A DNA stretch of 64,000 bases, taken from assembly GCA_012840345.1 (NCBI GenBank), contig DULO01000114.1, positions 2,192 through 66,191 of the forward strand. Reading direction: 5' to 3'. This document shows, one piece after another, positions 4,244 to 20,273 of this stretch. The notes beneath the pieces are model-generated. The model was given only the letters and a program-made list of their open reading frames with translations, ran no database searches and was not told the origin of the DNA. How positions within the stretch are numbered: position 1 is the stretch's first letter; every line of letters begins with the position of its first letter. This DNA comes from Candidatus Fermentithermobacillaceae bacterium. Its GTDB lineage: Bacteria > Bacillota > Sulfobacillia > Fermentithermobacillales > Fermentithermobacillaceae. The position numbers were made by a program, and so were the translations under genes.

Positions 4244-5707
4244 CTACGAGAGGAATCCCGCGTGTTTTCCGATTATCTCCATAAGAGCCACGAGGCCCTT
4301 CACAGCCAACCGCATCTTCTCGGGGATGAGGTTGCCGTCGTCGTCGCAGGTGCCCTGGCCCGGCGAGATGAAGATGTTGCCGTCGTAGGCGATGGTCGCG
4401 ATGAGCCCCATCTGGGCGAGACCGACCTGCAGCAGGTGAGAACCGGCATACATGTCTTCGATACTGAAGATCGGGAAGCCCATGCCCTCTTTCCACGTGT
4501 CTTCGTAGTTGACCTCGACGGTCATGCTGTTGTAGGACTTGGAGATCTTGAGACCCTTCTGGAGCTTGGGATGGGCCGCCTTGAACTCCGAAGTCACGAT
4601 CTCGTACAGCTCGTCGACTTGCGAGGTGTAGAAGCCAGGATTGTCCCTGAGGTCCTTCAGCACCTGGACCTGGGTCAGGAGAGCTTCCTTGCCCGGGTCT
4701 AGCATGACGTAAGCGGCTTTGCCGTAGGACGCGGTGGTGCCGTACCTGTCTCCGTGCATGCCCAGCGCCCTGCGGATGTTGACCATCACGTCTTCCTCGC
4801 CGATGATGAGGCCGGAAGTCGCGGCTCCGGTCGCTTTGTCCATGCTGTAGACCACTACAGTGGCGCCGGTCTTGGTCGGGTTATGCCCTAGCAAGGGGAG
4901 ACCCCAAGCGTTGTCGACGACGTACGGGACGTTGAGCTTTCTCGCGAGCGCGCCGATGCCCTTTTGGAGTAGCGGGGTGCCTTCCTCGTCCTTGGCTCCG
5001 TAGCCGTATCCGGGCGTGTCGTATCCGAGGGAGGCGAAGCCTGCGAGTTCGGTTCCGACTCTGTCCGCCATCTCGGCCAGAGCATCCACCGATCCCTTGG
5101 GATCGACCTTGGTGAGCAAAGGTACGGGCCAGTACTTTATACCGTGGTTGGGGTATTCGGCACCGGCGAGAGGCACGACCACGACGTCCAGATTGTCAAG
5201 TCGTTTGCCGGAGAAACCAAACTCGCCCGCGGTTGAACCTCTTTCCGAAATGAACTCCTTGTACTTGGGCGGGTAGGGCCTGCCGTAGCCGCCCTGGTGG
5301 TGCATATGTTTCTCCAGCGGGACTATGTACCTGCTCCGGTACTTGTCGCCGCGTCCGGTGAAAGGAGGCGAGAACAGCGTGTCATAAGTGACCCACAGCG
5401 CGCCTTCGCAGGTGTTTACCGGGCACACATCGTAACCGTCGCCGTAGACATCCTTAACGATTTCCCTAATCTCATCAACCAACCGGGCTAGAGGGATGAC
5501 CTTGGTTGCTCCCTTTTCAGAGGCCTCCAGAACGTTCCTGCGCATGGGGGCCGGGCACCCCGAAATGGCTCCCGTAAGTCCAAGGTTGCCTTTTAGGTCG
5601 CCCGTGATGCCCAGGCTTTCGGCCGCTTCCTTGGCTTCGGCGTAGATCTTGGGGGTGACGGCCTGAAGGTGTTTGTACATCTGGAATTTGTACTTGAACT
5701 CCGGCAC
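4244..5707 (-). CDS. fold-type-I PLP-dependent enzyme, SelA-like
   Basis: Lysine block VVYSMDKATGAATSGLIIGEED has the same pattern as the SelA/DgaE PLP-lysine block (S.DK..GG...G.I.G). 487 aa. Substrate unknown. Confidence 0.55.
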   Translation of the reverse strand: MPEFKYKFQMYKHLQAVTPKIYAEAKEAAESLGITGDLKGNLGLTGAISGCPAPMRRNVLEASEKGATKVIPLARLVDEIREIVKDVYGDGYDVCPVNTCEGALWVTYDTLFSPPFTGRGDKYRSRYIVPLEKHMHHQGGYGRPYPPKYKEFISERGSTAGEFGFSGKRLDNLDVVVVPLAGAEYPNHGIKYWPVPLLTKVDPKGSVDALAEMADRVGTELAGFASLGYDTPGYGYGAKDEEGTPLLQKGIGALARKLNVPYVVDNAWGLPLLGHNPTKTGATVVVYSMDKATGAATSGLIIGEEDVMVNIRRALGMHGDRYGTTASYGKAAYVMLDPGKEALLTQVQVLKDLRDNPGFYTSQVDELYEIVTSEFKAAHPKLQKGLKISKSYNSMTVEVNYEDTWKEGMGFPIFSIEDMYAGSHLLQVGLAQMGLIATIAYDGNIFISPGQGTCDDDGNLIPEKMRLAVKGLVALMEIIGKHAGFLS

Positions 5708-5744: not shown

Positions 5745-6179
5745 CTAGTCGACCATGCGGAACAAGACTTCCATACCTACCTGGAGCCCTCTCTCTTCTC
5801 CGGACACCAGGCTTCCTCCGACCACAACGTTCATGTGGTTTGGAGCGTGACTGAGATCGAAACCCGCGAGATGGCCTACTACCTGACCGCCAATGACGAC
5901 CTGGTCGCCTCGTACCAGGACTCCGCCGTTATGGAACTCAACGAACGCCACGTACGCAACCCGGCCCACATTGGAACCGGGCGCCGCTTCCTCATCGGTG
6001 GCAATTAGCTCATGGATATCGCCTCTTAGCACAACCCGGGACGGTTGCGGGATCAAACCAAGGTTTCTATCCTGGAGGGTACCACGAAGTACGGCAACGA
6101 CGGTGCCGTGGAGATCGTTTTTTGAGGCGTAAGCGTTGACGGCAAACTTTTTTCGAACATAGGGATCTTCTGTTGTCAC
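5745..6179 (-). CDS. small protein, possibly a PTS-IIA(gut)-like beta-barrel
   Basis: 144 aa, co-directional with and 37 nt upstream of the PLP enzyme gene. GDQVVIGGQVVGHLAGFDLSHAPNHMNVVV loosely recalls the glucitol IIA fold signature. The family call is tentative. Confidence 0.3.
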   Translation of the reverse strand: MTTEDPYVRKKFAVNAYASKNDLHGTVVAVLRGTLQDRNLGLIPQPSRVVLRGDIHELIATDEEAAPGSNVGRVAYVAFVEFHNGGVLVRGDQVVIGGQVVGHLAGFDLSHAPNHMNVVVGGSLVSGEERGLQVGMEVLFRMVD

Positions 6180-6198
6180 CGATGGCCCCCCTCATCAT

Positions 6199-6309
6199 GG
6201 ATGAGCAGGATCAATATATCACACATCTCGTACGAAACTCAACAAGAGTGGATCCTGTGTGATTTGGATGATATTATTTATTAGACCTGTTCAGCAATGA
6301 TGAGCAGAT
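6199..6309. promoter_or_regulatory. divergent control region with repeated motifs (candidate operator sites)
   Basis: Direct repeat GATGAGCAG at 6200-6208 and 6299-6307. Inverted repeat ATCACACA (6218-6225) / TGTGTGAT (6256-6263). AT-rich stretch at 6265-6285. Confidence 0.35.
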
Positions 6310-6336: not shown

Positions 6337-7080
6337 ATGTACGTGTCGGAGCACGACGACCTGTTTGAAGCTCTTGCAGCGGTCGCGGAATCCAAAACGC
6401 CGTTGGGCGCTTGGAACTTAAGGAAAATATTCAGCGGGAAAGGTATTCATGTTTCTGAAGCAACGTGTGGAAGACTGCTCCGTACGATTGAAGACGCCGG
6501 TTACGTCGAATCCCAAGGACGCCGCGGCCGGGTAATAACCAACAAAGGCTTAAAAGCCTTGGAAGAGTGGCGTCAGAGGCAGGTAAGGTACAAATCACAA
6601 ATGGCGTTTGCCCAGAGCCTCCAGATAAAAGGGGCCTCCGAGCTCAAAGACGTCTTAGTTGCCCGAAAAGCGATAGAATCCGAGACTGCCTATCTGGCTG
6701 CCACTCATGCCACAGATGAGGATATAGAGAGACTTCAAAGCATCATAGAGGAGCATAAGAAAGCATACGCCACGGGCGTTCCCGCCACAGACGAAAACGC
6801 CGCTTTCCACCGCGCGGTCGCTTTCGCCGGGAAAAACAAGGTGTTGGCGGCGGCCGTCGACATCATCTACCGGCACCCTGACGTGCTGAGGGCGCTCGAG
6901 TACATCAGAAACCAAGTTGGCTCGGTACTAGTGGAAGACCATGTGCCTATTTTGGACCGCATTATCGCGAGAGACCCAGAAGGAGCCAAGCGAGAGATGC
7001 TCGCGCACATCGAGAACGTCATCAAAGACGTGGACACTTACTGGAGGGAGTGGATGAGCCCGTCGGGCGAACAAGAATGA
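6337..7080 (+). CDS. GntR/FadR-family transcriptional regulator (wHTH + FCD-like domain)
   Basis: N-terminal winged-helix-like region (SEATCGRLLRTIEDAGYVESQGRRGRVIT). The C-terminal helical domain has the FCD-type block AAFHRAVAFAGKNKVL. Confidence 0.65.
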   Translation: MYVSEHDDLFEALAAVAESKTPLGAWNLRKIFSGKGIHVSEATCGRLLRTIEDAGYVESQGRRGRVITNKGLKALEEWRQRQVRYKSQMAFAQSLQIKGASELKDVLVARKAIESETAYLAATHATDEDIERLQSIIEEHKKAYATGVPATDENAAFHRAVAFAGKNKVLAAAVDIIYRHPDVLRALEYIRNQVGSVLVEDHVPILDRIIARDPEGAKREMLAHIENVIKDVDTYWREWMSPSGEQE

Positions 7081-7313
7081 GCGTGAAAGACAGAATCATT
7101 GACGCTTGCGACATTGAGACCTTCCTGGTCTGCGATGGTGTTGAGGAAGGCAAGAAACTTGGGCTGAGGCTCATGGCCGAACTGGGCTTCTCCGACGCGG
7201 ATGTCGTTTTCTGCGAGGAAGGCGGCTCAGGTGTGCGAATACGCCTTCGGGCTTATGTTCACAGGCCGGCCAGCGTTTATAGATGGCACAGCCGTGGAGG
7301 TGAACCGTCTTGA
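7077..7313 (+). CDS. small hypothetical protein (78 aa), coupled at both ends
   Basis: Its ATG overlaps the regulator stop (ATGA). Its stop overlaps the TTG start of the mutase-like gene (TTGA). No recognisable motif. Confidence 0.4.
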   Translation: MSVKDRIIDACDIETFLVCDGVEEGKKLGLRLMAELGFSDADVVFCEEGGSGVRIRLRAYVHRPASVYRWHSRGGEPS

Positions 7314-9121
7314 CACCCAAGAAAATGCTATTGGTTCCCCTCGATCCGGTACACGACGTCGGATTGAAGTTAATCGCTCGTGCCCTACATAACGCGGGAC
7401 ACGAGACAACCATTTTGCCTCCTGATTTGTCGCTGGAAGAGATTATCTCGAAGGCCAAGGCTACCTCGCCCGATTACATCATGGTGAGCAGGACCATTAG
7501 CTACGGAACCGCGGAGGTCTTGGCCAGGTTCGTGGACCTGTGTGATGCCTCGGGGATCCGAGAACACGCCAAGCTGGTGGTCGGCGGGCTCAGCATGAGG
7601 CCTGAAATGGCCCAGGAATACGGTTTTGACGCCGGCTTTGGGCCGAACACCACCCCGGAAGAAGTGGTAGCGTGGGTGGACGGCAAGAGGATTGAAACCG
7701 CTTCAGCGCGTCATAGCCTAACGAAGCCCGACATAACCCAGGGGTATTCATACGCGTTTCGCGATACCGAAGCGGGCGAGCTCTGTTACGACATTGCCCA
7801 GACGATTCTGGAATGGGCGGGCAACAAGACCACCGCGGGAATCGAGAGGGCTAAGGTGCGTGCCGACCTCGAGGAGGCCAGGGCCCAGGGTGACGAAAGC
7901 TCAGCTAAAGAACTCCTGGCCAAGTACGCTGGCCTTACCTCGGGCGATGTCCGCAAGTGGTACGATCTCGGGATCCCTGTTCCCCACACAAGGGCGCTCA
8001 CGGCGTCTGAGATTTCGCTGATAGAGTCGCTATCATTGGAGTCGCCGCTCCCCCCGGGTCAGAAACCTCTGGAGGGCCGTACGGTTATGGTCCAGTACGG
8101 TACCGGATGCCCCGTGATGGACGCCCAGCATATCGCTCTATCCCTGGCCTGGGGAGCCCGAGGCGTGGTCCATTTTGATCCGTCTTGGGGGGCCCGGACC
8201 GAAGGATTGCTTGAGGGAGCGTGGAGCCACCAGCACGACGGTACCGTTTTGACCCTCGAAAACCTGAAACTGATAAAACGGGCTATTCACCCCGGCGCCT
8301 TGTGGCAAGTTAGGGCGCACAGGGGGTTGAACACACCGGAGACCGTGGTGCTCGCGCACCTTGCCGGTGCCGACCTCACCAAAGTGAACATAGTGTACGG
8401 AAGCTTGGGAGCCGGTTCTGACCCCGCCAGGCTGACGGTGGACGGTGTGGAAGCCATGCGTTTGGCCGCCAGGTACGGAATGCCTTTTGACGTTGTGACC
8501 AACGAAGAACTCTGCGGCGTGCCTGCCAGGAAAGCTTTCGCGGGGATGCTCATAGTGGCGACAGTGGGTCTAATGCTCGGCGGGCGTCCCGTGCTTCAAC
8601 CCCTCTTTGCCAACTCTCCTGAGGCGATGGTGAGGGGACTGTCCGAAGACAACTTCGTGGACTTCAACTACGCTAAGATGGCTGTCTTGCGGGAGATCAT
8701 CGATGCCCCCATTTGGCCCGGCGCTCCTGTCGGCTTCATGACGCAGACGCCGGACCGCTGCCAGTCAGCCACGATGACCGCTCTACACGCGGCCCTGGCT
8801 TTGAACTTGGGAGCGTCCGCCGTGACCATCGCTTCCTCTGACGAGGCTTACGCCGGCGGACCGATTTCCGCCCACGCTAGAGTGGACACCCTGAAATCCA
8901 CGGCGGCGGCGCTTCGTTTCTTCGGTTCCAGCGGCATAGGGGCGACTCCCAGGGGCGACGTTTACGCGTCAGAACTTCGAGAAGGGATCATGGAAACGCT
9001 CCGCCGCGTAAGGGAGCGTCGGGATTTCGTCGCCGCGCTCTATGAAGGGCTCTTGGGCGACAAAGACGATGGAGCTTACCCGGGGCGCGCTGGAAAAGAC
9101 ACGGTAAGAGAGATCAGGTAA
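7310..9121 (+). CDS. cobalamin-binding domain fused to a GlmE-like barrel (glutamate-mutase-like, substrate unknown)
   Basis: N-terminus reads LLVPLDPVHDVGLKLIARALHNAGHE ... IMVSRTISYG ... KLVVGG ... FGPNTTPEEVVAWV. This parallels GlmS/MutS (DCHAVGNKIL ... VSSL ... VGG ... APGTPPEV). The C-terminal ~460 aa carry GlmE-like blocks such as VTIASSDEAYAGGPISAHARVDTLKS. Confidence 0.6.
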   Translation: MTPKKMLLVPLDPVHDVGLKLIARALHNAGHETTILPPDLSLEEIISKAKATSPDYIMVSRTISYGTAEVLARFVDLCDASGIREHAKLVVGGLSMRPEMAQEYGFDAGFGPNTTPEEVVAWVDGKRIETASARHSLTKPDITQGYSYAFRDTEAGELCYDIAQTILEWAGNKTTAGIERAKVRADLEEARAQGDESSAKELLAKYAGLTSGDVRKWYDLGIPVPHTRALTASEISLIESLSLESPLPPGQKPLEGRTVMVQYGTGCPVMDAQHIALSLAWGARGVVHFDPSWGARTEGLLEGAWSHQHDGTVLTLENLKLIKRAIHPGALWQVRAHRGLNTPETVVLAHLAGADLTKVNIVYGSLGAGSDPARLTVDGVEAMRLAARYGMPFDVVTNEELCGVPARKAFAGMLIVATVGLMLGGRPVLQPLFANSPEAMVRGLSEDNFVDFNYAKMAVLREIIDAPIWPGAPVGFMTQTPDRCQSATMTALHAALALNLGASAVTIASSDEAYAGGPISAHARVDTLKSTAAALRFFGSSGIGATPRGDVYASELREGIMETLRRVRERRDFVAALYEGLLGDKDDGAYPGRAGKDTVREIR

Positions 9122-9124
9122 GCA

Positions 9125-10282
9125 GTGGCCAGGACCTTCAACGGACCGATCATAGGTATAGCGGGCACCGCCAAGAACACGGGCAAGACCACCACGTTCA
9201 ACGCGGTGACCCGCTACTTGCGTCGCATAGGCCGGGACCGTTTGCTCACCAGCATTGGTTATGACGGGGAAGACCTGGACAGCATCACAGGCTTGCCCAA
9301 GCCCAAGGTGTTCGTGGAGACGGGCGATGTCGTAGCCACCGCCCTTCCGCTGCTCCGGGCGTCTACCGCCGTCTTTGACGAGCCGGCGCTCACAGGAGTT
9401 GAGTGCGCTTTAGGACCGGTCTGTGTCGCCAAGGTTAGGGATGGCGGCAAGGTTGTGTTGGCCGGTCCCACCAGCACCAAAGACGTTGAGACGGTGCTCG
9501 GGTTCGTAAGCGCCGCTTTGCCCTCACGGGACAGGATTACGCTGCTTGATGGCGCGTTTTCCAGGATGTCTCCCATGGCTTTGTCAACCCACTTGCTGAT
9601 CGCCACAGGGGCCGCCAGGTATCAGTTCCCCGGCTTCATAAGCCAAAACATGGACGAGCTGGCCGCCGTATTCGGCCTTCCCCTGGACGAAGGGGAATGG
9701 GATTTGGTGTTGGACCACGGGCTGTTTGATGATGAAGGCGCGGAGTTGGTCTTTGAGGCTATTGAGAGTGTCTGGAAAGACCAGGCCTTCCAGGGTGCGG
9801 CTCAGGTCACTGCTCTGGCCGCGGCTGACGCTGCCCGCATGGATTCCCCCGGCATCGTTCTCCGCTGCGCGATAAACGGTGTCGTAGCTCCCTCCCCGTT
9901 GACGAGACTGTTGGAGCTGTTGGATAAGTCCCCAAGAAACATCCGTGTTACCTTCGGCTTCGCTCACCCGATTTCTCTGCTTCTCTCCGGTGACTTGAGC
10001 CTATGGCGCGGCACCATTCAAAACGCCGCGAGAGCGGGCCACAATCTCGCGGTCCGTGCGACCTCCCGTCTGTTGGGGTTCACCATAAGCCCGTACTTCC
10101 CGGTGTACGATATGGAGCGCCGCGAGTACGTGGCGTCGTACGCCTCGCCCAGAAGCTTCCTCAACGAAATCCGCAGCAGGACCTCGGTGCCTTGCACCGA
10201 CATCATCCTTGAGGGAACCCGGATCCTTGAGTCTTGGATAGACTCGGTCTCAGTGACGAAAGAGTCCCCGACCGGCGCTTGA
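9125..10282 (+). CDS. P-loop protein, DTBS/CobQ-like (SIMIBI-type) N-terminus
   Basis: IIGIAGTAKNTGKTTT P-loop near the N-terminus, then SIGYDGEDLD and LLDGAFSRMSP. This resembles the dethiobiotin synthetase / cobyrinic-acid-diamide-synthase nucleotide fold. GTG start 3 nt after the mutase stop. Confidence 0.45.
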   Translation: MARTFNGPIIGIAGTAKNTGKTTTFNAVTRYLRRIGRDRLLTSIGYDGEDLDSITGLPKPKVFVETGDVVATALPLLRASTAVFDEPALTGVECALGPVCVAKVRDGGKVVLAGPTSTKDVETVLGFVSAALPSRDRITLLDGAFSRMSPMALSTHLLIATGAARYQFPGFISQNMDELAAVFGLPLDEGEWDLVLDHGLFDDEGAELVFEAIESVWKDQAFQGAAQVTALAAADAARMDSPGIVLRCAINGVVAPSPLTRLLELLDKSPRNIRVTFGFAHPISLLLSGDLSLWRGTIQNAARAGHNLAVRATSRLLGFTISPYFPVYDMERREYVASYASPRSFLNEIRSRTSVPCTDIILEGTRILESWIDSVSVTKESPTGA

Positions 10283-10343: not shown

Positions 10344-11285
10344 ATGAAGATACTCGCCACAAGGCCGTGGAAAGAATGGGAAAAGCAAGCCATATCAAGA
10401 GCTGTGAAGGACGCCGAGTTCTTGGAGCCGGGGCCGGTCCCCATAGAGGAGCTTATAGAAGAAGCGGACGTACTGTTTGGATCATCCCAGGTACCTCTGG
10501 ACCGGGTCGCCAGTTCCAAGACCTTGAAACTTGTGCAGGCCCGGTCGACCGGAGCCGATAGGTTTCTAACCGAAGAGTTCAAGAAATCCAAAATCATACT
10601 GACGACCGCCAGAGGGGTTCACGCCCCTCCCGTGGCGGAACACGCCGTAGCCCTCATGATGGCCGTGGCCTACAACTTCAGGACCAACGACAAGAACCAG
10701 CGGGAGAAGACATGGGGCGAGCACTCCGTAAACCGGCTTTACGGCAAGACCGCAGGCATTTTGGGCATGGGCACTATCGGCGAAGAGATCGCCAAGCGGT
10801 GCAAAGGCCTGGACATGAACGTTATCGGTACCAGAAAGGACCCCTCGAAAGGTTCGGCCAATGTTGAGAAGGTTTTCCCGCTGGACCGCCTTCCCGAGTT
10901 TCTCGCTTCCTCAGACGTCGTCTTGTGTTCTTTGCCCGGGACGCCGGATACCTACCATTTCCTGGCCGAAAAAGAGTTTAGGGTGATGAAACCTTCCGCT
11001 CTCGTGATAAACGTCGGCCGGGGCTCCGTCATCAATGAAAAGGACCTGATAAAGGCCCTGTCAGAAGGATGGATAGCCGGAGCGGGTCTCGATGTTTTCG
11101 AGGAAGAGCCGCTTCCGCCGGATAGTCCTCTTTGGGATATGCCAAACGTGGTTATTACGCCGCATTCCGCGGGTTACGCTCCTGACAACGAGCGGAAGAT
11201 AATAGAAATCCTGATCCAAAACCTAGTAAACCTGCAAGAAGGGTTGCCGCTTGTGAATGTCGTAGACAAAGAAGCCGGGTATTAG
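10344..11285 (+). CDS. D-isomer-specific 2-hydroxyacid dehydrogenase
   Basis: NAD fold GILGMGTIGEEIAKR. Catalytic blocks INVGRGSVI (Arg), LDVFEEEP (Glu), ITPHSAG (His). Confidence 0.85.
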   Translation: MKILATRPWKEWEKQAISRAVKDAEFLEPGPVPIEELIEEADVLFGSSQVPLDRVASSKTLKLVQARSTGADRFLTEEFKKSKIILTTARGVHAPPVAEHAVALMMAVAYNFRTNDKNQREKTWGEHSVNRLYGKTAGILGMGTIGEEIAKRCKGLDMNVIGTRKDPSKGSANVEKVFPLDRLPEFLASSDVVLCSLPGTPDTYHFLAEKEFRVMKPSALVINVGRGSVINEKDLIKALSEGWIAGAGLDVFEEEPLPPDSPLWDMPNVVITPHSAGYAPDNERKIIEILIQNLVNLQEGLPLVNVVDKEAGY

Positions 11286-11994: not shown

Positions 11995-13587
11995 ATGTAC
12001 TTGGCTTCTGTAGAGGAATCGAGAGAATTGGACAAACGGGCGGAGGCGATGGGCCTTACGACGCTGTGCCTCATGGAAAACGCGGGGCGCGGCCTGGCTT
12101 TGGGCGTAGAGAAGGTGCTTTCGGGATTGCCCGAACCGCCGGATACCCCGGGCGAGGAAAAAAGGCGCCGGATAGTTGTCTTGGCAGGCCAGGGGCAAAA
12201 CGGCGGAGACGGGTTTGTCGCGGCCCGGCACCTGTCGGCGAAAGGACATGAGGTCCGCGTCTTGTTCTTCGGCAGAGAAGAGGCCCTGCCCCGAGAAGCG
12301 GCCGCCAACTACCGCTTGCTTTCGGCTTCCTCTGTAGCGGTCAGAGCCGCTTCCGGTGTCGAGTCTTACGTCGAGTCCGCCCTCGGGTGGGCTTCCGAGT
12401 TTCGGCCGGAAGTGATTGTTGACTCGTTACTGGGTACCGGAGTGAAAGGAAACCCGCGTCCTCCTATGGACCGGGCCATAATGTGGGCCAATTCGTCCGG
12501 CATTCCCATCGTGGCCTGCGACCTGCCTTCCGGGCTTAACGCGGATACGGGCTGGCCCTATCAGCCTACCGTGAAGGCCTGCCTGACTGTCACCATGGGA
12601 CGGCCGAAGGTCGGTCTCTACTCTTACCCCGGACGGGCGTTTTGCGGGGAGATTGTGGTGGAGAACCTCGGGATGCCCGGGGAAGCGCTCGGGACTTCCA
12701 AAACGCGGGCGGTTTTCGCCGGTGATGTCACGCGCGTGTTGCCCGTGAGAGGCGAGGACCACCACAAGGGGATGTCCGGGCACGTCACCGTGATAGCCGG
12801 ATCCAAAGGCATGGCAGGGGCGGCAGTCTTGGCGGCGAAAGCGTGCCTTCGCGCGGGGGCCGGAACTGTCACTCTCTTGTGCCCCGGAGAGGTGTATCAG
12901 GTTTGCGCGTCCATGGTGCCGGAGGTCATGGTGATGCCGCTCGGGACCGGTCCTGTCTTTGAGCCCCACGAGCGGGCGCTGGATACGGTAACGGACTTCT
13001 TACGCAAGTCAGAGGCCGCGGTCATCGGCCCCGGCATAGGGAGGGGGTCCTCCCAAGAAGCGTTCTTGGCCGAGGTTTTGGGCTTGGGCGTCGAGGTCCC
13101 TTTGGTGATAGACGCCGATGCCCTGCATGCCCTCAAGTCCCTGGGAGGACTGACATATCTAGGGAGCATCCAGGGAAACTTTATCCTGACCCCGCACCCC
13201 GGAGAGCTTTCGCGCCTCATGGACATAAGCGCGGACCAGATCGCCACTGACCGGCCGGGCTGGGCGAGGCGCGCGGCCGCGTCCGGAAATGCCGTTGTAT
13301 GCCTGAAGGGTGCAGGAACATGCGTGGCGAATGCTACGGGTGAGGTGTTTATCAACACGTCCGGGGACCCGGCCATGGCTACCGCCGGCTCCGGCGATGT
13401 TCTTAGTGGAGTGATAGCCGCTCTCGCGGCCCAGGGACTGTCTTTGCTGGAGGCCGCGTGGGCAGGAGTCTTTTGGCATGGCCTAGCGGGCGAGCGCGCC
13501 AGAGCCAAAATTGGATCCTATGGGGCATTAGCGGGGGATATCAGTGATTGTCTCCCCGAAGTTCGAGGGTCCTTATCTAGGAGGTGA
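11995..13587 (+). CDS. nnr: bifunctional NAD(P)H-hydrate repair enzyme (epimerase + ADP-dependent dehydratase)
   Basis: N-terminal YjeF_N block VLAGQGQNGGDGFVAARHL. C-terminal dehydratase blocks HKGMSGHVTVIAGSKGMAGAAVLA and GDPAMATAGSGDVLSG. Confidence 0.9.
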   Translation: MYLASVEESRELDKRAEAMGLTTLCLMENAGRGLALGVEKVLSGLPEPPDTPGEEKRRRIVVLAGQGQNGGDGFVAARHLSAKGHEVRVLFFGREEALPREAAANYRLLSASSVAVRAASGVESYVESALGWASEFRPEVIVDSLLGTGVKGNPRPPMDRAIMWANSSGIPIVACDLPSGLNADTGWPYQPTVKACLTVTMGRPKVGLYSYPGRAFCGEIVVENLGMPGEALGTSKTRAVFAGDVTRVLPVRGEDHHKGMSGHVTVIAGSKGMAGAAVLAAKACLRAGAGTVTLLCPGEVYQVCASMVPEVMVMPLGTGPVFEPHERALDTVTDFLRKSEAAVIGPGIGRGSSQEAFLAEVLGLGVEVPLVIDADALHALKSLGGLTYLGSIQGNFILTPHPGELSRLMDISADQIATDRPGWARRAAASGNAVVCLKGAGTCVANATGEVFINTSGDPAMATAGSGDVLSGVIAALAAQGLSLLEAAWAGVFWHGLAGERARAKIGSYGALAGDISDCLPEVRGSLSRR

Positions 13588-13889
13588 ATGGCCCTCTCAG
13601 GTGGGGCCGGCCCAAGTTGTCCAAACTCAAGAGAGTCGTAGTGGGGCTACCGGAAGAAACCTTGGCAACTATTGACACGCTCGTATCAGGCACCAAGATT
13701 TGCAGGTCGGAACTGATTCGAGAGGCCTGCTATTTCTACATTGAGGAGCGGCGCCGCCAGACTCTGAGAGAAAAGATGAAGGCCGGATATCAAGAGATGG
13801 CTGAGCTGAATAGGCTGTTGGCTGAGGAGTTCGCGTGTGACTTCTACCTAAACTACGACGAGAGTACCTCGGGGTGGAGGAAGGCGTAA
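13584..13889 (+). CDS. ribbon-helix-helix antitoxin (EndoAI/MazE-like)
   Basis: [17 protein letters not shown]...[30 protein letters not shown] resembles the Bacillus EndoAI antitoxin. It lies immediately upstream of mazF. Confidence 0.75.
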
Positions 13890-13890
13890 C

Positions 13891-14241
13891 TTGGATCCAA
13901 CCAGAGGCGATGTGTACTTTGCCGATTTGAGCCCGGTTGTGGGGTCTGAGCAAGGAGGATTCCGGCCGGTGCTTATTATTCAGAACGACATTGGGAACAA
14001 GTACAGCCCCACCGTCATAATCTCGGCCATCACTTCGCAAATAGCCAAGGTCAGGCTCCCCACCCATGTCGAGCTTCCGGCCTCCGTGTCCGGACTGGAT
14101 AAGGATTCGGTTGTGCTCTTAGAACAAGTGAGAACCATAGACAAGCGCAGGCTGAAGCGTCGTGTGACCAAACTCGACGATGAGATAATGGCTAAGGTTG
14201 ACGAAGCTCTCGCTATCTCTCTTGGTCTAAAACCTATATAA
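13891..14241 (+). CDS. mazF: MazF/PemK-family endoribonuclease toxin
   Basis: [29 protein letters not shown]...[11 protein letters not shown]...LPTHVEL. TTG start 1 nt after the antitoxin stop. Confidence 0.9.
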
Positions 14242-14281: not shown

Positions 14282-15322
14282 ATGACAGAAGACCGTTTGG
14301 GTTTTCCCACCGTCAAGCTGACCCATCTCCCGACCCCCCTGGAGGAAGCCCCCAGATTCTCGGAAGCCCTGGGAGGACCCAGAATCTTCATCAAACGAGA
14401 CGACACGACCAGTCTGGCCTTGGGAGGAAACAAGGCGAGGAAACTCGAGTTTCTCTTGGGTGACGCCCTAACTCAAGGCTGCGACGCTGTGGTGACTTGC
14501 GGGGGACCGCAGTCAAACCACGCAAGGATGACCGCGGCCGCCGCGCGAAAGCTGGGCCTTACGCCTGTGCTGGTCTTTGAGGGGGATGACCCCGGGCACA
14601 GGATGGGGAACCTTCTCTTGGACAGCCTGTTGGGCGCCGAGATGATTTTTGCCGGGGACAAGCCTACCGAGTTAGTGATGGGAGAGGTACGTGAGCGGCT
14701 CGTGAAAGAAGGCAAAAAGCCCTACATGGTCCCCATCGGAGGCTCCACCCCGTTAGGTACTTTAGGTTACTACGTATGTGCCGAAGAGATCGTAAGCCAG
14801 TGCCAGGCCATTGGGATTGAGCCCAAGGCGATATACCTGGCGGCGGGTTCTTTGGGCACTTTGTCCGGCCTATTGATAGGCAAGCTCGTACACCAGGCGC
14901 CTTTCGAGGTGTTGGGAGTAGCCGTAGGACGGACCGACGAGAGCAAGATCGAAAGAGGAGTCGAGCTCACGCTGGGTGGAGCGAGCCTTCTTTTGTCCCG
15001 CGCCTCGGACAAGCGTCTAGAGCGCCTGTCTGGGGTTACCGCGGAAGAAGTGCGTCCGCTGGTGAAAGTGCTTACCGGGCAGGTAGGTCCGGGCTACGGG
15101 ATACCGACGCCTGAATGCTTGGAAGCCATTACTCTCCTCGCTAGGACCGAAGGGATCCTCACCGACCCGGTTTACACGGGTAAAGCCCTGGCGGAACTGG
15201 TCGCCGCTGCCCGGCGGGGAGATTACCGCAAGGATGATACTGTAGTTTTCCTTCATACAGGCGGAGTGCCAGCTGACTTCGCTTACGGAGACGTCTTCTT
15301 GACAAAGGAGGAACTCAAATGA
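14282..15322 (+). CDS. D-cysteine desulfhydrase / ACC-deaminase-family PLP enzyme
   Basis: IKRDDTTSLALGGNKARKLEFLLGDAL (PLP-lysine block of this family), GGPQSNH, FLHTGG. Confidence 0.8.
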   Translation: MTEDRLGFPTVKLTHLPTPLEEAPRFSEALGGPRIFIKRDDTTSLALGGNKARKLEFLLGDALTQGCDAVVTCGGPQSNHARMTAAAARKLGLTPVLVFEGDDPGHRMGNLLLDSLLGAEMIFAGDKPTELVMGEVRERLVKEGKKPYMVPIGGSTPLGTLGYYVCAEEIVSQCQAIGIEPKAIYLAAGSLGTLSGLLIGKLVHQAPFEVLGVAVGRTDESKIERGVELTLGGASLLLSRASDKRLERLSGVTAEEVRPLVKVLTGQVGPGYGIPTPECLEAITLLARTEGILTDPVYTGKALAELVAAARRGDYRKDDTVVFLHTGGVPADFAYGDVFLTKEELK

Positions 15323-16029
15323 GGCCCGTCATCGGTATCGTGGCCAGTTATGACGAGGAAAGAGGAGTCGCGGCCTGCACCAGGACCTATATTGACTCCA
15401 TCGTTGAGGCGGGAGGAAAACCTATACTAATCCCGCTCATGCCCGACGAAGCCGCTCAGGAGATGCTGTCGGTGGTAGATGGGCTCCTGTTCCCAGGGGG
15501 TGTGGACGTGGACCCGATGCGCTACGGGGAGCGTCCGCACCAGGCGCTCGGCCGCATAAGCCCCGAACTCGATGCTTTGGAGATCCCTTTGGCCCAGAAG
15601 GCGTTGGCCATGAACATGCCGCTCTTAGGGATCTGCCGGGGCTGCCAGGTGGTCACCGTGGCTTCAGGCGGCACTCTTGTCCAAGACATTCCCAGCCAGG
15701 TTGGGGGCGCCATGAAACACAGCCAGTCGGCGCCCAGATGGTACGGGACCCATGAAGCAGTGTTGGATGAAGACTCCTTGGTCGCGAGACTGCACGGTAC
15801 CAGGCGTCTCGTTGTGAATTCATTCCACCACCAGAGCATAAAGTCCCCCGGAGATGGTTTCACGGTAACGGCCAGGGCCCTTGACGGGATAGCCGAGGCC
15901 GCCGAGGCCAAGAAGGGCTTTAGGTTGCTTATCCAGTGGCACCCCGAGTGCATGTGGGTAAAGAACAGGGTTTTCTTGGCGCCTTTCACCGCTTTGTGCA
16001 AGGCGGCCAAGGGCCAGTCGTGGGAGTAG
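15319..16029 (+). CDS. peptidase C26 / gamma-glutamyl hydrolase-type class-I amidotransferase-like protein (PuuD-like)
   Basis: Nucleophile elbow LLGICRGCQ, NSFHHQ, IQWHPE. ATGA overlap with the upstream gene. Confidence 0.8.
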   Translation: MRPVIGIVASYDEERGVAACTRTYIDSIVEAGGKPILIPLMPDEAAQEMLSVVDGLLFPGGVDVDPMRYGERPHQALGRISPELDALEIPLAQKALAMNMPLLGICRGCQVVTVASGGTLVQDIPSQVGGAMKHSQSAPRWYGTHEAVLDEDSLVARLHGTRRLVVNSFHHQSIKSPGDGFTVTARALDGIAEAAEAKKGFRLLIQWHPECMWVKNRVFLAPFTALCKAAKGQSWE

Positions 16030-16035
16030 ACAAGC

Positions 16036-17154
16036 ATGGACGGCACATCACCCAAGACTGCCAGACCTAGGTGCAGGGACCTTGGCATAACAATTGGAAG
16101 GATGTCTCCCGGGCCGAAAAACGCCATCACCGATGTTCCCCAAGTCGCGGTAGGCCACGTTACCTTGATCGATGGGGAAGGGCCTTTGGTGCCTGGGAAA
16201 GGGCCCGTTCGCACAGGGGTCACCGCTGTTCTTCCACACCGGGGGAACCTTTTCGAGGAGAAGGTCCGGGCAGCGATTCACGTCATAAACGGGTTCGGCA
16301 AAGCCACCGGCTTGGCTCAGGTCGCGGAACTAGGGGTCCTGGAAACGCCCTTGGTCTTGACCAACACCCTATCGGTCGGTACTGCGTGGGATGCTCTATG
16401 CGAGTACATGCTAACCAAGAACCCGGAGATCGGAGTCTCTACAGGCACGGTCAATCCGGTGGTGCTTGAGTGCAACGACGGCTTCCTGAACGACATACGA
16501 GGACGGCATGTACGCCGGGAACATGTGCTGGCGGCGTTGGATGGGGCCACTTGCGGCCCGGTCCAGGAAGGAAACGTTGGCGCGGGCACAGGCATGTCGT
16601 GCTTGGGCTTTAAAGGAGGAATCGGGACAGCGTCCCGGAGGCTCACCGGGGAACTGGAAGGAAACTGCCTGGGAGTCTTGGTTCTGGCCAACTTCGGTCA
16701 AGCCGAGGACCTTACCATCGCGGGAGTCCCTGTGGGGTTCGAGCTATCCAAACGGCAACATCATCCCCCCGCGCCTCCCGGGTCGATAGTGATCATCGTG
16801 GCCACGGACGCTCCGCTAAGCGATCGCCAGTTGGGCAGGGTCGCCCGGAGGTGCCAAGGGGGCCTAGCCAGAGTGGGTTCGGTTTTCCACAACGGGAGCG
16901 GCGATTTTGTGGTCGCCTTTTCAAACGCCGAAAAGGTTGGTCATCAAGGGCCCGCGATCGAGAACGCGAAGATGGTGAGGGACGACTCTTTGGAGATGGC
17001 GGGACTCTTCAGGGCAGCGGTGGAAGGCACGGAGGAAGCGGTCCTGAACGCCCTTTTCGCGGCCGACACCATGGTGGGCAGGGACGGCAACACCAGGTTA
17101 GGGCTTCCCCTTGACGAAACCGTGGAGATCTTGAAAAGCCATAGAGCTTTGTAG
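16036..17154 (+). CDS. DmpA/BapA-type (peptidase S58) aminopeptidase
   Basis: VGHVTLIDG...VRTGVTAVLPH, and the self-processing/nucleophile block PPGSIVIIVATDAPL. Confidence 0.75.
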   Translation: MDGTSPKTARPRCRDLGITIGRMSPGPKNAITDVPQVAVGHVTLIDGEGPLVPGKGPVRTGVTAVLPHRGNLFEEKVRAAIHVINGFGKATGLAQVAELGVLETPLVLTNTLSVGTAWDALCEYMLTKNPEIGVSTGTVNPVVLECNDGFLNDIRGRHVRREHVLAALDGATCGPVQEGNVGAGTGMSCLGFKGGIGTASRRLTGELEGNCLGVLVLANFGQAEDLTIAGVPVGFELSKRQHHPPAPPGSIVIIVATDAPLSDRQLGRVARRCQGGLARVGSVFHNGSGDFVVAFSNAEKVGHQGPAIENAKMVRDDSLEMAGLFRAAVEGTEEAVLNALFAADTMVGRDGNTRLGLPLDETVEILKSHRAL

Positions 17155-17244: not shown

Positions 17245-17916
17245 ATGCCGAGAGAATCCAACCAATCGGGAGGCGGCGGCAGCGCCCCAAAGAAGAGCGT
17301 GAGCCGGCCCTCTTATTTGGGAGGGAGCAGATCCCAGACCCAAAGTCTGCCCGTCGAGACGAAGGCAGAGCCTGTCGTATCGAAACCGGCATCGGAGGAC
17401 AAGGCCCTGTACGAGTGGAAAATCTGGCTGTTTCCGAGGCGCCCCATGGTTTCAGCTATCGTGGTGCTCGTCGTACTCGGAAGCTTGGCTTTGGCGTACT
17501 GGACTTACCCGGAGCCGCTTTTCATAGCCATCATAGCGTTGATTCTTTTAAACAGGCTTGCCCTGTATCTGTTCCCGGTTAAGTACACCATCGGGGAAGT
17601 CACTGTGGGATACGAGACATTGTTGGCCAGAGACAAGAGGACTTGGGACAAGTTCTTCACCTACTACCAGTTCCCGGACGGGGTTCTCTTGGCCCACGAT
17701 ACCCGGGGTCTTAGGGGGCGTCTGAAAGAGGGGTTGTTTCTCTACTACAACCGGGACCTTTCCAATAAAGAGCAGATACTGGATCTCGTCAAAGCCCGGC
17801 TTAAACCGCCTAAGGAAGCCACGCGGGACGATCAATCGTCACCTAGTAAGGGAGGGATACTGTCCGCTTGGCGCCGGGTGAGAAGGGCCAAGCAGAGCCG
17901 GGAACGGGAAGAGTAG
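17245..17916 (+). CDS. membrane protein: disordered N-terminus, two TM helices, bacterial-PH-like domain
   Basis: TM hairpin MVSAIVVLVVLGSLALAYW / LFIAIIALILLNRLALYLF followed by about 100 aa (KYTIGEVTVGYETLLARDKRTWDKFFTY). This is the YdbS/YdbT-type arrangement. Confidence 0.45.
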   Translation: MPRESNQSGGGGSAPKKSVSRPSYLGGSRSQTQSLPVETKAEPVVSKPASEDKALYEWKIWLFPRRPMVSAIVVLVVLGSLALAYWTYPEPLFIAIIALILLNRLALYLFPVKYTIGEVTVGYETLLARDKRTWDKFFTYYQFPDGVLLAHDTRGLRGRLKEGLFLYYNRDLSNKEQILDLVKARLKPPKEATRDDQSSPSKGGILSAWRRVRRAKQSREREE

Positions 17917-17943: not shown

Positions 17944-18333
17944 GTGATGTTCAAGGCTCCTGAGCCTATAGACGCGAAGAAGCGCGACCAGATGATTGAA
18001 GCAGTGGCCCAAAGAGTTCAGCAGTTCGGAATGCTGGTGCCGGCCATTTTCTTCTTGGAGATGAACAAACCCCTAAGCTACATCGGCGCCCAAGCTATGC
18101 ACTTCTTCTCGCCCATCATCGGCGTGTTGTTTCCTACCTTTGAGGATTACGCGTACTTCCTGGAAGACCGGGAGAATGTGGAACTCCTGATACAGAAGCT
18201 CGAGAGTTTGTCGGAACAGGAAGAAGAAGCGCGGAGGCAAGCCAAGAAAGAGAAGCAACTCAAGAAGCAAGCCAAGCGTGCCAGCTTGTTGGACGAGGCT
18301 CAGCAGATGGACAAAGATTTGCCTTCTCAATGA
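17944..18333 (+). CDS. small hypothetical protein with a hydrophobic core and a Lys/Glu-rich tail
   Basis: 129 aa. FGMLVPAIFFLEMNKPLSYIGAQAMHFFSPIIGVLFP, then EQEEEARRQAKKEKQLKKQAKR. 27 nt after the previous gene. Confidence 0.45.
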   Translation: MMFKAPEPIDAKKRDQMIEAVAQRVQQFGMLVPAIFFLEMNKPLSYIGAQAMHFFSPIIGVLFPTFEDYAYFLEDRENVELLIQKLESLSEQEEEARRQAKKEKQLKKQAKRASLLDEAQQMDKDLPSQ

Positions 18334-18422
18334 AGGGATTTTGAGATCCGACAGCATATTGCAGACAAGTAGGTTTATTGCGATTTATCCTTGGCGTTGG
18401 CAGCAAGGGAGGGGGACAGTTA

Positions 18423-20273
18423 GTGCCTGAAGAAAAAGCTTTTCAGCTGGACAGGGAGATCAACTCTGTCTTGGCTACAGACTGCGGCTCCACAACGACC
18501 AAAGCGATCCTCATCGAAAAGGTCGGCGACGAATATCGCCTTATAGTTAGAGGTGAAGCCCCGACAACCGTTGAGGCTCCGTTTGAGGATGTTACCGCAG
18601 GCGCGAGAAACGCTATACGAGAAGTCGAGGAACTGACAGGAAAGACGCTACTGGACGAAAAGGGAGTCATAACCCCGAGAAGGCCCGACGGAACCGGAGT
18701 GGACATCTACATGTCCACGTCCTCGGCCGGCGGCGGCCTGCAGATGATGGTGGCCGGCGTGGTCAAAACCATGACCGCCGAATCGGCGGCAAGAGCCGCT
18801 CTTGGCGCGGGCGCCATCGTCATGGACGTTATCTCGGTGGACGATGGAAGGAAGCCCCACGAGAAGATCCAAAGGATCCGCCACCTGCGTCCCGACATGA
18901 TTCTTTTGTCAGGGGGCATTGACGGCGGCACCATCACTCACGTCGTGGAGATCGCCGAGTTGATCTCGGCGGCGGAACCCAAGCCCAGGCTGGGAATTGG
19001 GTTCAAGCTGCCGGTGATTTACGCGGGCAACAAGGACGCGAGGCCCCACATTCAATCAAGTCTGGGTCAAAAAGTGGACCTCAGGATCACGGACAACCTC
19101 CGTCCGGTTCTGGAGAAAGAAGTCTTGGGACCCGCCCGAGAAGAGATCCACAACCTGTTCATGGAGCACGTTATGGCCCAGGCTCCCGGGTACAACAAAC
19201 TCATGTCCTGGACACCGGTGCCCATCATGCCGACGCCGGGCGCGGTAGGCATTTGCATGCAGACTGCCTCGCGAGAGTATGACGTGAGCGTCATCGGCGT
19301 TGACATCGGCGGCGCCACGACTGACGTCTTCTCCGTGTTCGGCGAGTTCTTTAACCGTACCGTTTCCGCGAACTTGGGAATGAGCTACTCTATCTGCAAC
19401 GTTCTCTTGGAGGCGGGCGTCCAAAACATCTTGCGCTGGATACCGTTTAAGATAGATGAGGGCGACCTCAGGAACAGGATCCGGAACAAGATGATCCGTC
19501 CGACGACCATTCCCCAGACTCTCGATGAGCTCGTAATTGAGCAGGCGATCGCTCGCGAGGCTCTGAGGCTCGCTTTCCTCCACCACAAGAGCTTGGCTGT
19601 GGGATTGCGTGGAGTCCACAAAGAGAGGACTATCGGAGATACTTTCGAGCAGACCGGAAGCGGAGAGTCTTACATCGACCTCATGGATCTCGGCATGCTT
19701 GTCGGTTCGGGCGGCGTTTTGTCCCACGCGCCGAGACGCGCTCAGAGCGCCATGATGATGCTGGACGCTTTCCAGCCTGAGGGGCTCACAATGCTTGCGG
19801 TAGACTCGATCTTCATGACGCCCCAGCTGGGCATCTTGTCCACGATCCATCCGAAAGCCGCCATGCAAGTGTTTGAAAGGGACTGCTTGATTATTCTGGG
19901 CACCGCCATAGCTCCGGCCGGCCCGAGCGGTTCCGCCAAGCCGGGAGACTCCTGCGTGAAGGTGACTTTGGAGTGGGACGACCAGTCTGTTACCGAAGAA
20001 GTGCCTTACGGCCAGATGAAGGTTGTCCCGGTTCCCAACGGCAAGACCGCAAAGGCCGTCATCCAGCCGTCCAGGCAATTCAACGCGGGCGCCGGATACG
20101 GCCATACCGTTGAAAAGACGATCAACGGCGGAGTAGTGGGCGTCATCATTGACTGCCGCGGACGGCCGTTCACGCCTCCTGCCGACGAAGCTTCGCGCAA
20201 CGCCAAACTCTTGGAGTGGTTCAGGGCTTTGAATCTGTACCCCCAAGAATCGCTGGAAAAGTACGCTAAGTAG
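18423..20273 (+). CDS. GlmL/MutL-like ASKHA-fold protein (hydantoinase/reactivase-related)
   Basis: Phosphate-1 motif LATDCGSTTTKAILIE and second ASKHA motif VIGVDIGGATTDVFSV. Start placed at GTG 18423, 6 nt after AAGGGAGGGGGA; the ORF opens at 18378. Confidence 0.65.
   Translation: MPEEKAFQLDREINSVLATDCGSTTTKAILIEKVGDEYRLIVRGEAPTTVEAPFEDVTAGARNAIREVEELTGKTLLDEKGVITPRRPDGTGVDIYMSTSSAGGGLQMMVAGVVKTMTAESAARAALGAGAIVMDVISVDDGRKPHEKIQRIRHLRPDMILLSGGIDGGTITHVVEIAELISAAEPKPRLGIGFKLPVIYAGNKDARPHIQSSLGQKVDLRITDNLRPVLEKEVLGPAREEIHNLFMEHVMAQAPGYNKLMSWTPVPIMPTPGAVGICMQTASREYDVSVIGVDIGGATTDVFSVFGEFFNRTVSANLGMSYSICNVLLEAGVQNILRWIPFKIDEGDLRNRIRNKMIRPTTIPQTLDELVIEQAIAREALRLAFLHHKSLAVGLRGVHKERTIGDTFEQTGSGESYIDLMDLGMLVGSGGVLSHAPRRAQSAMMMLDAFQPEGLTMLAVDSIFMTPQLGILSTIHPKAAMQVFERDCLIILGTAIAPAGPSGSAKPGDSCVKVTLEWDDQSVTEEVPYGQMKVVPVPNGKTAKAVIQPSRQFNAGAGYGHTVEKTINGGVVGVIIDCRGRPFTPPADEASRNAKLLEWFRALNLYPQESLEKYAK

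Follow-up and report, generated by a model that had tools for sequence, protein, structure and literature searches.

The 64,000-nt stretch of contig DULO01000114.1 analysed here (the window; positions 2,192 to 66,191 of the forward strand, assembly GCA_012840345.1, a Candidatus Fermentithermobacillaceae bacterium) carries an operon for a cobalamin (B12)-binding protein, which is the subject of this analysis. The open reading frame (ORF) of 603 aa at 7310-9121 on the plus strand is real and encodes the large subunit of the putative enzyme. Its TTG start codon is located 7 nt 3' of the Shine-Dalgarno sequence GGAGGTG and overlaps the stop codon of a small-subunit gene (TTGA), whose own start overlaps the stop codon of a GntR-family regulator gene (ATGA). 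Together with a KamB homolog that follows after a gap of 3 nt, these genes form a tight operon. No Rfam family reaches its gathering score in positions 1-64000, and hence no cobalamin riboswitch is found near the B12 operon. The reading favoured below, with rather more confidence than doubt, is that the protein is the large subunit of an uncharacterised adenosylcobalamin (AdoCbl)-dependent radical isomerase of the aminomutase lineage, with re-partitioned modules and probably independent of pyridoxal 5'-phosphate (PLP). The proteins concerned and their parts, as delimited by profile searches, an AlphaFold2 (AF2) model and structure comparison, are as follows:

7310..9121, plus strand: large subunit, 603 aa, with a B12-binding Rossmann domain, a KamD-like helical domain and a (beta/alpha)8 barrel
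7310..7678, plus strand: KamE-like cobalamin-binding Rossmann domain, residues 1-123 (PF02310, NCBIfam Lys_5_6_beta, PDB KamE)
7337..7363, plus strand: His-ligand motif P-L-D-P-V-H-D-V-G, residues 10-18, with H15 at nt 7352-7354
7766..8071, plus strand: helical domain, residues 153-254 (AF2 secondary structure; hhalign to KamD 15-150)
8072..8929, plus strand: (beta/alpha)8 barrel, residues 255-540 (AF2, Foldseek, hhalign, homolog conservation)
7077..7313, plus strand: small subunit of 78 aa with a beta-alpha-beta-beta topology, homologous to the OAM_dimer / KamE N-terminal module
9125..10282, plus strand: KamB-type P-loop protein, 385 aa, with the Walker A sequence GTAKNTGKTT (NCBIfam reactivase_KamB)

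Residues 11-118 of the large subunit score 57.2 bits (E 1.9e-15) against the Pfam B12-binding family (PF02310), which exceeds its curated cut-off of 32.1, and no second Pfam family matches the protein. An earlier note on this DNA, which had named PF02310 as a check, described the N-terminal part as a block-for-block parallel of GlmS of glutamate mutase. GlmS is a relative in a PDB search (3e-5), but KamE of lysine 5,6-aminomutase (5,6-LAM) is much closer (PDB 9q1a/8t0v; 6e-12). NCBIfam Lys_5_6_beta matches the domain at 1.5e-14, and the KamE motifs V-S-x-T and G-[FY]-D-A-G-F-G-P recur in it (here GFDAGFGP). Methyltransferase corrinoid proteins also match this domain (1y80, 6e-7; MtgC, 2.7e-7).

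The loop that carries the candidate cobalt-ligand His departs from the canonical DxHxxG, in which Asp stands two residues before the His; the His and the Gly are kept. When the domain is aligned with canonical corrinoid proteins and GlmS, P13 occupies the canonical Asp column and D12 falls one residue upstream. Among 117 full-length homologs, P10, D12, P13, V14, H15, D16 and K20 show no variation, and G18 is found in 116. Because of this column assignment and this invariance, the shifted motif P-x-D-P-V-H-D-x-G is a real family signature and not a chance variant. The earlier observation that the Asp lies one residue further from the His is thereby upheld, and H15 is never lost in the homologs.

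The C-terminal 460 residues are isolated at the sequence level. Neither Met_asp_mut_E (PF06368) nor GlmE nor any other family matches them at E<=1 in Pfam and NCBIfam, Pfam Lys-AminoMut_A does not match the large subunit, and no PDB chain, GlmE included, is retrieved at E<=10, even with a profile of 52 family sequences. When 1.84 billion cluster representatives are searched exhaustively with a HMMER profile, the family alone is returned (one full-length sequence plus fragments), and no bridge to KamD, OraE, GlmE or Mgm emerges. As nothing beyond its own family is detectable by sequence among these representatives, the barrel represents a distinct family and not an ortholog of a known mutase.

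Kinship becomes visible in the fold. The AF2 model of the large subunit, built on 52 homologs, has a predicted local distance difference test (pLDDT) score of 86.7 and a predicted template modelling score (pTM) of 0.84, and places the Rossmann domain at residues 1-123 and, beyond a linker, the helical domain at 153-254 and a beta/alpha repeat at 255-540. In Foldseek searches against 350,542 PDB chains, the best match is KamD, the alpha subunit of 5,6-LAM (1xrs_A; E 7.7e-15, template modelling (TM) score 0.65 over 524 columns), followed by OraE of ornithine 4,5-aminomutase (OAM; E 4.7e-10) and, in third place, GlmE (E 2.3e-9, TM 0.52); IcmF and methylmalonyl-CoA mutase match more weakly than GlmE. 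Long matches that span the barrel come exclusively from these five AdoCbl isomerases, and those to corrinoid proteins and photoreceptors are confined to the Rossmann domain of ~125 residues.

Profile-profile alignment by hhalign, with KamD sequences taken from PDB alignments and a canonical lysine-fermentation locus, makes the family collinear with KamD from residue 2 to ~500 at about 15% identity. The score of 37.4 compares with 16.3 +/- 3.1 for 40 column shuffles (maximum 27.3) and 14.4 for the reversed template. The counterpart of the helical domain in this alignment is KamD 15-150, with the 'TT.VER..R' block among the aligned positions. When OraE is included in the KamD profile, the probability does not rise and the alignment becomes unstable after beta-5; against a single GlmE sequence the probability is 0.3%. 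A barrel of the KamD/OraE type is thus found at the fold level and by a weak, above-null profile similarity, and it belongs to the AdoCbl-isomerase class with the aminomutases as nearest kin. The earlier note had recognised the block order of GlmE in these ~460 residues, a likeness that does not appear in Pfam, NCBIfam or PDB searches or in hhalign and persists only at the fold level, in third rank. What it had seen more broadly, a base-off/His-on type B12 domain fused to the substrate barrel of an AdoCbl isomerase, stands, as does the likeness of the barrel to B12 mutases, which Foldseek finds in the order KamD, OraE, GlmE. As an identification, GlmS plus GlmE was right in class, but the nearest relatives of the two halves are KamE and KamD.

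The description of the protein as a single chain has to be abandoned. In a comparison of 83 related loci by tblastn and all-against-all clustering (counts out of 84 include the window), a gene of ~78 aa lies directly 5' of the large subunit in 79 of the 83 loci, and a KamB-like gene (360-385 aa) lies directly 3' of it in 71. The small subunit has no Pfam match and no significant PDB match by profile search. Its profile aligns gap-free to the N-terminal module of KamE (hhalign score 28.6, E 1e-4), a score that none of 30 shuffles reaches. An AF2 model from a seven-sequence alignment (pLDDT 82) has a beta-alpha-beta-beta topology, and its top six Foldseek matches among the same PDB chains are all OraE or KamE; the superposition on 8t0v_C gives TM scores of 0.60/0.56 and a root-mean-square deviation of 2.1 A, and the closest fold is that of the OAM_dimer module (E 4e-3). 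The small subunit is therefore a homolog of the OAM_dimer / KamE N-terminal module in the form of a separate, conserved 78-aa protein, and the enzyme is not single-chain. As all three modules of KamDE and OraSE are present, their arrangement as [OAM_dimer] + [Rossmann - helical - barrel] is a third partition of known parts. Two canonical lysine-fermentation loci, L084 and L086, have kamE called as an OAM_dimer part and a B12 part (7582-8384 and 1529-2337, respectively); a natural split was considered for them and rejected as an artefact of an N run in L084 and a poly-A frameshift in L086.

The KamB-type P-loop protein matches NCBIfam reactivase_KamB at 2.6e-40 and 138 bits, below the cut-off of 210, and its T. 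syntrophicus ortholog exceeds that curated cut-off with 242 bits. With the KamB encoded in a genuine kce-kdd-kamA-kamB-kamC-kamD-kamE cluster, the window protein shares 35% identity (E 3e-21), and it has no PDB relative by sequence. It is presumed to act as a reactivase or cofactor-exchange factor.

In the aminomutases, the Lys that forms the Schiff base with PLP lies 11 residues after the cobalt-ligand His (K144beta in 5,6-LAM, K629 in OAM) (PMC3958899). The barrel of 5,6-LAM contributes S238 at the pyridine N, Y263 for stacking, N299, and R184, S189 and R268 at the phosphate (PMC3958899, PMC9105233). The KamE segment ...DAHTVGIDAIMNMKGYAGH..., read from locus DNA, aligns gap-free to ...PVHDVGLKLIARALHNAGH... 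of the large subunit, which sets K144beta against L26; of the 117 homologs, 112 have Leu in this column and the other 5 have Ile. In the stable part of the hhalign alignment, S238 corresponds to the invariant R338, R184 to the invariant D290, S189 to a deleted loop or Ala, R268 to A/G368 and N299 to a gap or L401; only the stacking Tyr is kept (Y263 to Y363). By this modest-confidence alignment, one of the seven PLP ligands is kept and six are replaced, with all three phosphate-binding side chains lost, and the protein is therefore not filed as an aminomutase. The substrate ligands of OAM are likewise replaced (E81 by Q262, Y160 by A336, H182 by K358, H225 by E400, and R297 by G475 or W469).

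Invariant residues of the family gather at the strand ends of the barrel: Q262-YGTG, H288/D290, R296, R335/H337/R338, K358/N360/Y363, E399/E400, W469/G475 and D511-E512-A513. With the PLP-anchoring Lys missing and other residues in place of six of the seven side chains that bind PLP, a polar pocket composed of the invariant Q262, R296, R335, H337, R338, K358, N360 and E399/E400 probably holds the substrate directly, as in glutamate mutase. The substrate is most likely anionic and a small carboxylate, for example an amino acid or a hydroxy acid. When the GlmE arginine claw is compared by strand-end position, R296/R338 could match R100/R149, with R66 replaced by Gly/Thr and E171 by N360, in a manual comparison that lacks a reliable alignment. 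The earlier inference of a different substrate from the low barrel likeness to GlmE fits these results, and the substrate is very probably not glutamate.

The last of these invariant blocks, SSDE512A, follows the predicted strand 505-507. Its counterpart in OraE reads 'TPDE338G' (PMC4413051), that in GlmE reads 'KTPHE330A' (K326-E330), and a HMMER alignment equates E338 of OAM with E411 of KamD ('LTE411A'). The block VTIASSDEAY, previously quoted as evidence for GlmE, is plausibly beta-8 with the ribose-contact Glu by manual comparison; it is not specific to GlmE, because that Glu is common to GlmE (E330), OraE (E338) and KamD (E411). The KamD/OraE HMMER alignment places the OAM 'PDEG' on KamD 'TE411A' and not on Glu341, the residue that has been proposed as the 5,6-LAM counterpart of OAM Glu338 (PMC3958899). 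In the same alignment, the PDB chain index of OraE runs 3 below the literature numbering after about residue 190.

Compared with characterised systems, the family stands closest to KamDE/KamBC, then to OraSE and then to GlmSE, and it differs from KamDE, OraSE and GlmSE in domain order, His-loop motif and active-site residues. The 5,6-LAM system (1XRS, 8T0V, 9Q1A) offers the best match of barrel and helical domain, collinear over the whole length of KamD, as well as the most similar Rossmann domain, the fold of the small subunit in the KamE N-module and a homolog of the adjacent KamB; the stacking Tyr and an E-D/E-E pair after beta-5 are also retained, as is, by manual alignment, the Glu that follows beta-8. 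Its layout is [helical + barrel] + [OAM_dimer + Rossmann], whereas in the present family the Rossmann domain is N-terminal to the KamD part and the KamE N-module is separate. Further differences are DxxHDxG in place of DxHxxG, the replacement of K144beta, S238, R184, S189, R268, N299 and K370, the lack of KamC, and the absence of lysine-fermentation genes (kamA, kdd, kce) nearby.

OraSE (3KOW-3KP1), the second-best structural match, likewise combines barrel and Rossmann domain in one chain with a small extra subunit, and its 'P-D-E-G' after beta-8 resembles 'S-D-E-A' here. Its modules are ordered as OraS + [barrel - OAM_dimer - Rossmann], in contrast to Rossmann - helical - barrel with a detached OAM_dimer; the PLP Lys K629 and the substrate ligands are replaced, and no ord/ort genes occur nearby. 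Glutamate mutase (GlmS/GlmE/GlmL; 1CCW, 1I9C, 6H9E) shares the class and the fold of a Rossmann domain plus TIM barrel, plausibly the Glu after beta-8 (E330), and PLP-independent substrate binding by charged side chains, the mode proposed for this family. It is only the third-best structural match (TM 0.52), with no sequence-level signal in the barrel, and it differs in having separate polypeptides, a GlmL chaperone and a canonical DxHxxG, with KamB taking the accessory place here. The 2-methyleneglutarate mutase of Eubacterium barkeri (Mgm) is a non-CoA carbon-skeleton mutase made of a single ~610-aa chain with a barrel and a C-terminal B12 domain. The barrel is not detectably related to Mgm, since the search of 1.84 billion representatives found its own family only, and there are no nicotinate-fermentation genes near the locus.

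The operon is preceded by two divergent genes, for DUF6917 and a PLP-dependent enzyme of 487 aa (PLP487), and is followed by a dehydrogenase gene:

6337..7080, plus strand: GntR/FCD-family transcription regulator (Pfam FCD, 2.3e-24)
6192..6208, unstranded: operator-like site 1, TCATCATGGATGAGCAG, with the palindromic core CTCATC-ATG-GATGAG at 6191-6205
6291..6307, unstranded: operator-like site 2, TCAGCAATGATGAGCAG, 5' of the GntR-small-large-KamB operon
5745..6179, minus strand: DUF6917 protein, 144 aa (Pfam PF21891, 6e-43)
4244..5707, minus strand: PLP487, a PLP-dependent enzyme of fold-type I, DgaE/SelA-like (NCBIfam DgaE, 1.9e-5)
10344..11285, plus strand: D-2-hydroxyacid dehydrogenase (Pfam 2-Hacid_dh_C, 1e-60), 61 nt 3' of the KamB-like gene

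The GntR/FCD regulator (~250 aa) recurs in 71 of the 83 loci, PLP487 in 68, DUF6917 (~144 aa) in 56, an FAD oxidoreductase (~427 aa) in 45/84 and a RidA-family deaminase (~155 aa) in 41/84. PLP487 is 56-88% identical among loci, a conservation like that of the B12 protein (52-87%). Its T. syntrophicus ortholog matches the NCBIfam DgaE family at 1.3e-13, the Schiff-base motif S-x-D-K (YSMDK) is kept in 58 homologs, and PDB matches to PLP enzymes of Cys/Met metabolism surround the Lys. In L035, L041, L061, L066, L067, L069, L072, L073, L081 and L082, which have no KamB homolog, PLP487 or DUF6917 lies directly 3' of the large subunit. The D-2-hydroxyacid dehydrogenase is near the cluster in 3 loci only and is not a conserved neighbour; it is a lineage-specific one that possibly reduces a 2-oxoacid product. 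The DapF and GlmL-family genes of the window are not conserved neighbours either, and genes beyond the core are mostly syntenic housekeeping genes (penicillin-binding protein 5, cytidylate kinase, LigD and a quinolinate phosphoribosyltransferase (QRPTase)-like gene).

Generic scans of the intergenic region for inverted repeats and promoters were uninformative. A comparison of the divergent intergenic regions of 12 loci uncovered the motif TCAnCAnnGATGAGnAG, which has the palindromic core CTCATC-N3-GATGAG. This motif occurs exactly twice in the 64-kb window, both times in the 157-bp divergent intergenic region (0.02 expected). The 83 loci, with 1.5 Mb of sequence in which ~0.05 occurrences would be expected, contain 61 exact copies distributed over 54 loci. 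Most of these are located no more than 200 nt 5' of a gene for DUF6917 (25), GntR (6), the small subunit (4), RidA (2) or PLP487 (2). These sites presumably constitute the operator of the GntR/FCD regulator, and the shared motif thereby ties the PLP enzyme, DUF6917 and RidA genes functionally to the B12 enzyme. Regulators of the FCD type typically sense small carboxylates.

A mechanism consistent with this architecture can be outlined. Cobalamin would be bound base-off/His-on through H15 of the P-x-D-P-V-H-D-x-G loop, and the Rossmann domain would close over the barrel mouth upon substrate binding. E512 after beta-8 may contact the adenosyl ribose and promote homolysis of the Co-C bond, whereupon the 5'-deoxyadenosyl radical would abstract a substrate hydrogen and a 1,2-shift would follow. 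A damaged cofactor would be exchanged by the KamB-like P-loop protein. The DgaE-like PLP lyase may handle the isomer, after or before the mutase step; its enamine or imine product could be hydrolysed by RidA to a 2-oxoacid, and this might be converted further by the flavoenzyme or, in the lineage of the window, by the D-2-hydroxyacid dehydrogenase. PLP lyase, RidA and flavoenzyme would thus be linked to the substrate or product in most genomes within one GntR/FCD regulon.

Given the loss of the PLP (vitamin B6) site, the rearrangement catalysed is probably one that has not yet been described. A more specific proposal is held with a little less than even confidence. It regards the protein as a new PLP-independent AdoCbl isomerase, an aminomutase minus its PLP site, that subjects a small carboxylate, amino or hydroxy, to an undescribed 1,2-rearrangement as the first step of an unrecognised fermentative or catabolic route in thermophilic and syntrophic anaerobic Bacillota, running from the mutase through a DgaE-like PLP lyase and RidA to a flavoenzyme or 2-oxoacid reductase.

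Several observations weigh against these interpretations. The residue mapping derives from a weak profile alignment (hhalign probability 24-34%) that is stable for beta-1 to beta-4 only and ambiguous in the loop after beta-2 and beyond beta-5; the equivalence of E512 with E338, E411 and E330 is a manual one in a region where hhalign is unstable. Y363 is kept and the invariant K358 lies near the old PLP pocket. Adenosyl- and methylcobalamin are not distinguishable from sequence. KamC, the MutS_V ATPase partner of KamB, is missing from the window and from 82 of the 83 loci, about 10 loci are without a KamB homolog, and the genome of the window itself lacks the RidA and flavoenzyme neighbours.

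The retained Y363 and K358 give substance to an alternative in which the protein is a genuine PLP- and AdoCbl-dependent aminomutase acting on a new amino acid, with the Schiff base on K358 and R338 at the pyridine N in the manner of the fold-type III alanine racemase. Architecture, small subunit and KamB partner are all of the aminomutase type, the invariant Lys stands five residues before the stacking Tyr, an Arg facing the pyridine N has precedent among PLP enzymes (PMC9105233), and neighbours such as the PLP lyase and RidA are amino-acid-like. It is nevertheless unlikely: none of the 117 homologs has the Rossmann Lys, all of them carrying Leu or Ile at His+11, the phosphate ligands R184, S189 and R268 are lost together with N299, and K358 aligns with H182 of OAM, which is a ligand of the substrate carboxylate and not of PLP (PMC3958899).

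Much less probable is a fusion of GlmS and GlmE that belongs to the glutamate mutase (methylaspartate mutase) family but has an altered substrate. Both proteins are indeed related, at a greater distance (GlmS by sequence, 3e-5; GlmE by Foldseek, 2.3e-9), the 'x-E-A' block of beta-8 matches GlmE K326-E330, R296/R338 could by eye equal R100/R149, and the loss of the PLP site makes chemistry like that of glutamate mutase plausible. The barrel, however, has no Met_asp_mut_E, GlmE or TIGR01503-type match and an hhalign probability of 0.3%; KamD and OraE match the structure better than GlmE does (TM 0.65 versus 0.52), the Rossmann domain carries KamE-type motifs, and the accessory proteins are of the KamB and OAM_dimer types, not GlmL, with the GlmL-family gene 9 kb away and not a conserved neighbour. 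A corrinoid protein other than a radical isomerase, reusing the barrel for methyl transfer or for cobalamin handling or sensing, is the most improbable. In its favour, the Rossmann domain does match methyltransferase corrinoid proteins (1y80, MtgC) and the non-canonical Asp could alter the His-Asp relay. Against it, barrel-spanning matches come from AdoCbl isomerases alone, the neighbouring gene encodes a homolog of an aminomutase reactivase, and the residue assigned by manual alignment to the ribose-contacting Glu after beta-8 does not vary.

The family comprises more than 1000 proteins at E<=1e-3 in a collection of 5.8 billion, named at most 'cobalamin B12-binding domain-containing protein', and is isolated in sequence and tight (at least 50% identity). 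Relatives occur in 187 of 185,579 GTDB species genomes, and all 79 of the lineage-labelled loci listed are from Bacillota, including Fermentithermobacillaceae, Tepidanaerobacter, Desulfotomaculum/Desulfosporosinus, Peptococcaceae, Heliorestis and Selenomonadales. A subclade of Fermentithermobacillaceae (L008, L013, L015-L020, L022, L023 and L025) keeps GntR-small-large-KamB, with no PLP487 or DUF6917 within 10 kb and a QRPTase-like gene ~3.5 kb downstream. Desulfosporosinus sp. OT (NZ_AGAF01000043.1; L036 and L043) contains two cluster copies ~17 kb apart, each with DUF6917, PLP487, small subunit, large subunit and a KamB-like gene. These paralogous clusters suggest a duplication, perhaps with diverged substrate specificity.

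No description of the family or of DUF6917 was found in the literature searched, and the family is a new one within the AdoCbl isomerases, known here by computation alone. To our knowledge, about a dozen AdoCbl-dependent enzyme families have been recognised, and the additions of the last two decades are variants of acyl-CoA mutases. The present family combines a third, permuted aminomutase arrangement with a lost PLP site and a non-canonical His-loop. If the proposal is correct, B12 radical chemistry would gain a further reaction, the family would illustrate how an enzyme that depends on two cofactors can lose one of them, and a function would be provided for DUF6917 and a DgaE-like PLP family in organisms of importance to anaerobic digestion and syntrophic acetate oxidation. 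Names such as 'methylmalonyl-CoA mutase cobalamin-binding subunit', 'D-lysine 5,6-aminomutase beta subunit' and 'KamB' on relatives or neighbours call for caution in annotation, as they would wrongly imply lysine fermentation.

Elsewhere in the window, 9 kb downstream, 18378-20273 (plus strand) encodes a GlmL/MutL-family protein of 631 aa (PF13941, 5e-123; NCBIfam GlmL, 5.9e-64, below cut-off) with a C-terminal extension of ~130 aa past the model match (residues 31-503) and no adjacent mutase gene; the flanking ORFs (17245-17916, 17944-18333 and 20288-21409) have no Pfam match. Its candidacy as a chaperone of the B12 enzyme was dismissed for want of a conserved association, such a gene being near the family in 2 of the 83 loci only, both from close relatives, and it is probably unrelated to the B12 family. 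A toxin-antitoxin pair of the MazE(RHH)/MazF(PemK) type (13584-13889 and 13891-14241, plus strand) is situated between genes for a YjeF-family protein and a PLP enzyme. A gene for a PLP enzyme of the CuyA/D-cysteine-desulfhydrase family (NCBIfam CuyA, 3e-97, below cut-off) lies at 14282-17154 (plus strand) in a row with those for a peptidase C26 of the gamma-glutamyl hydrolase type and an S58/DmpA peptidase, and the three genes suggest a separate set for amino-acid and peptide catabolism.

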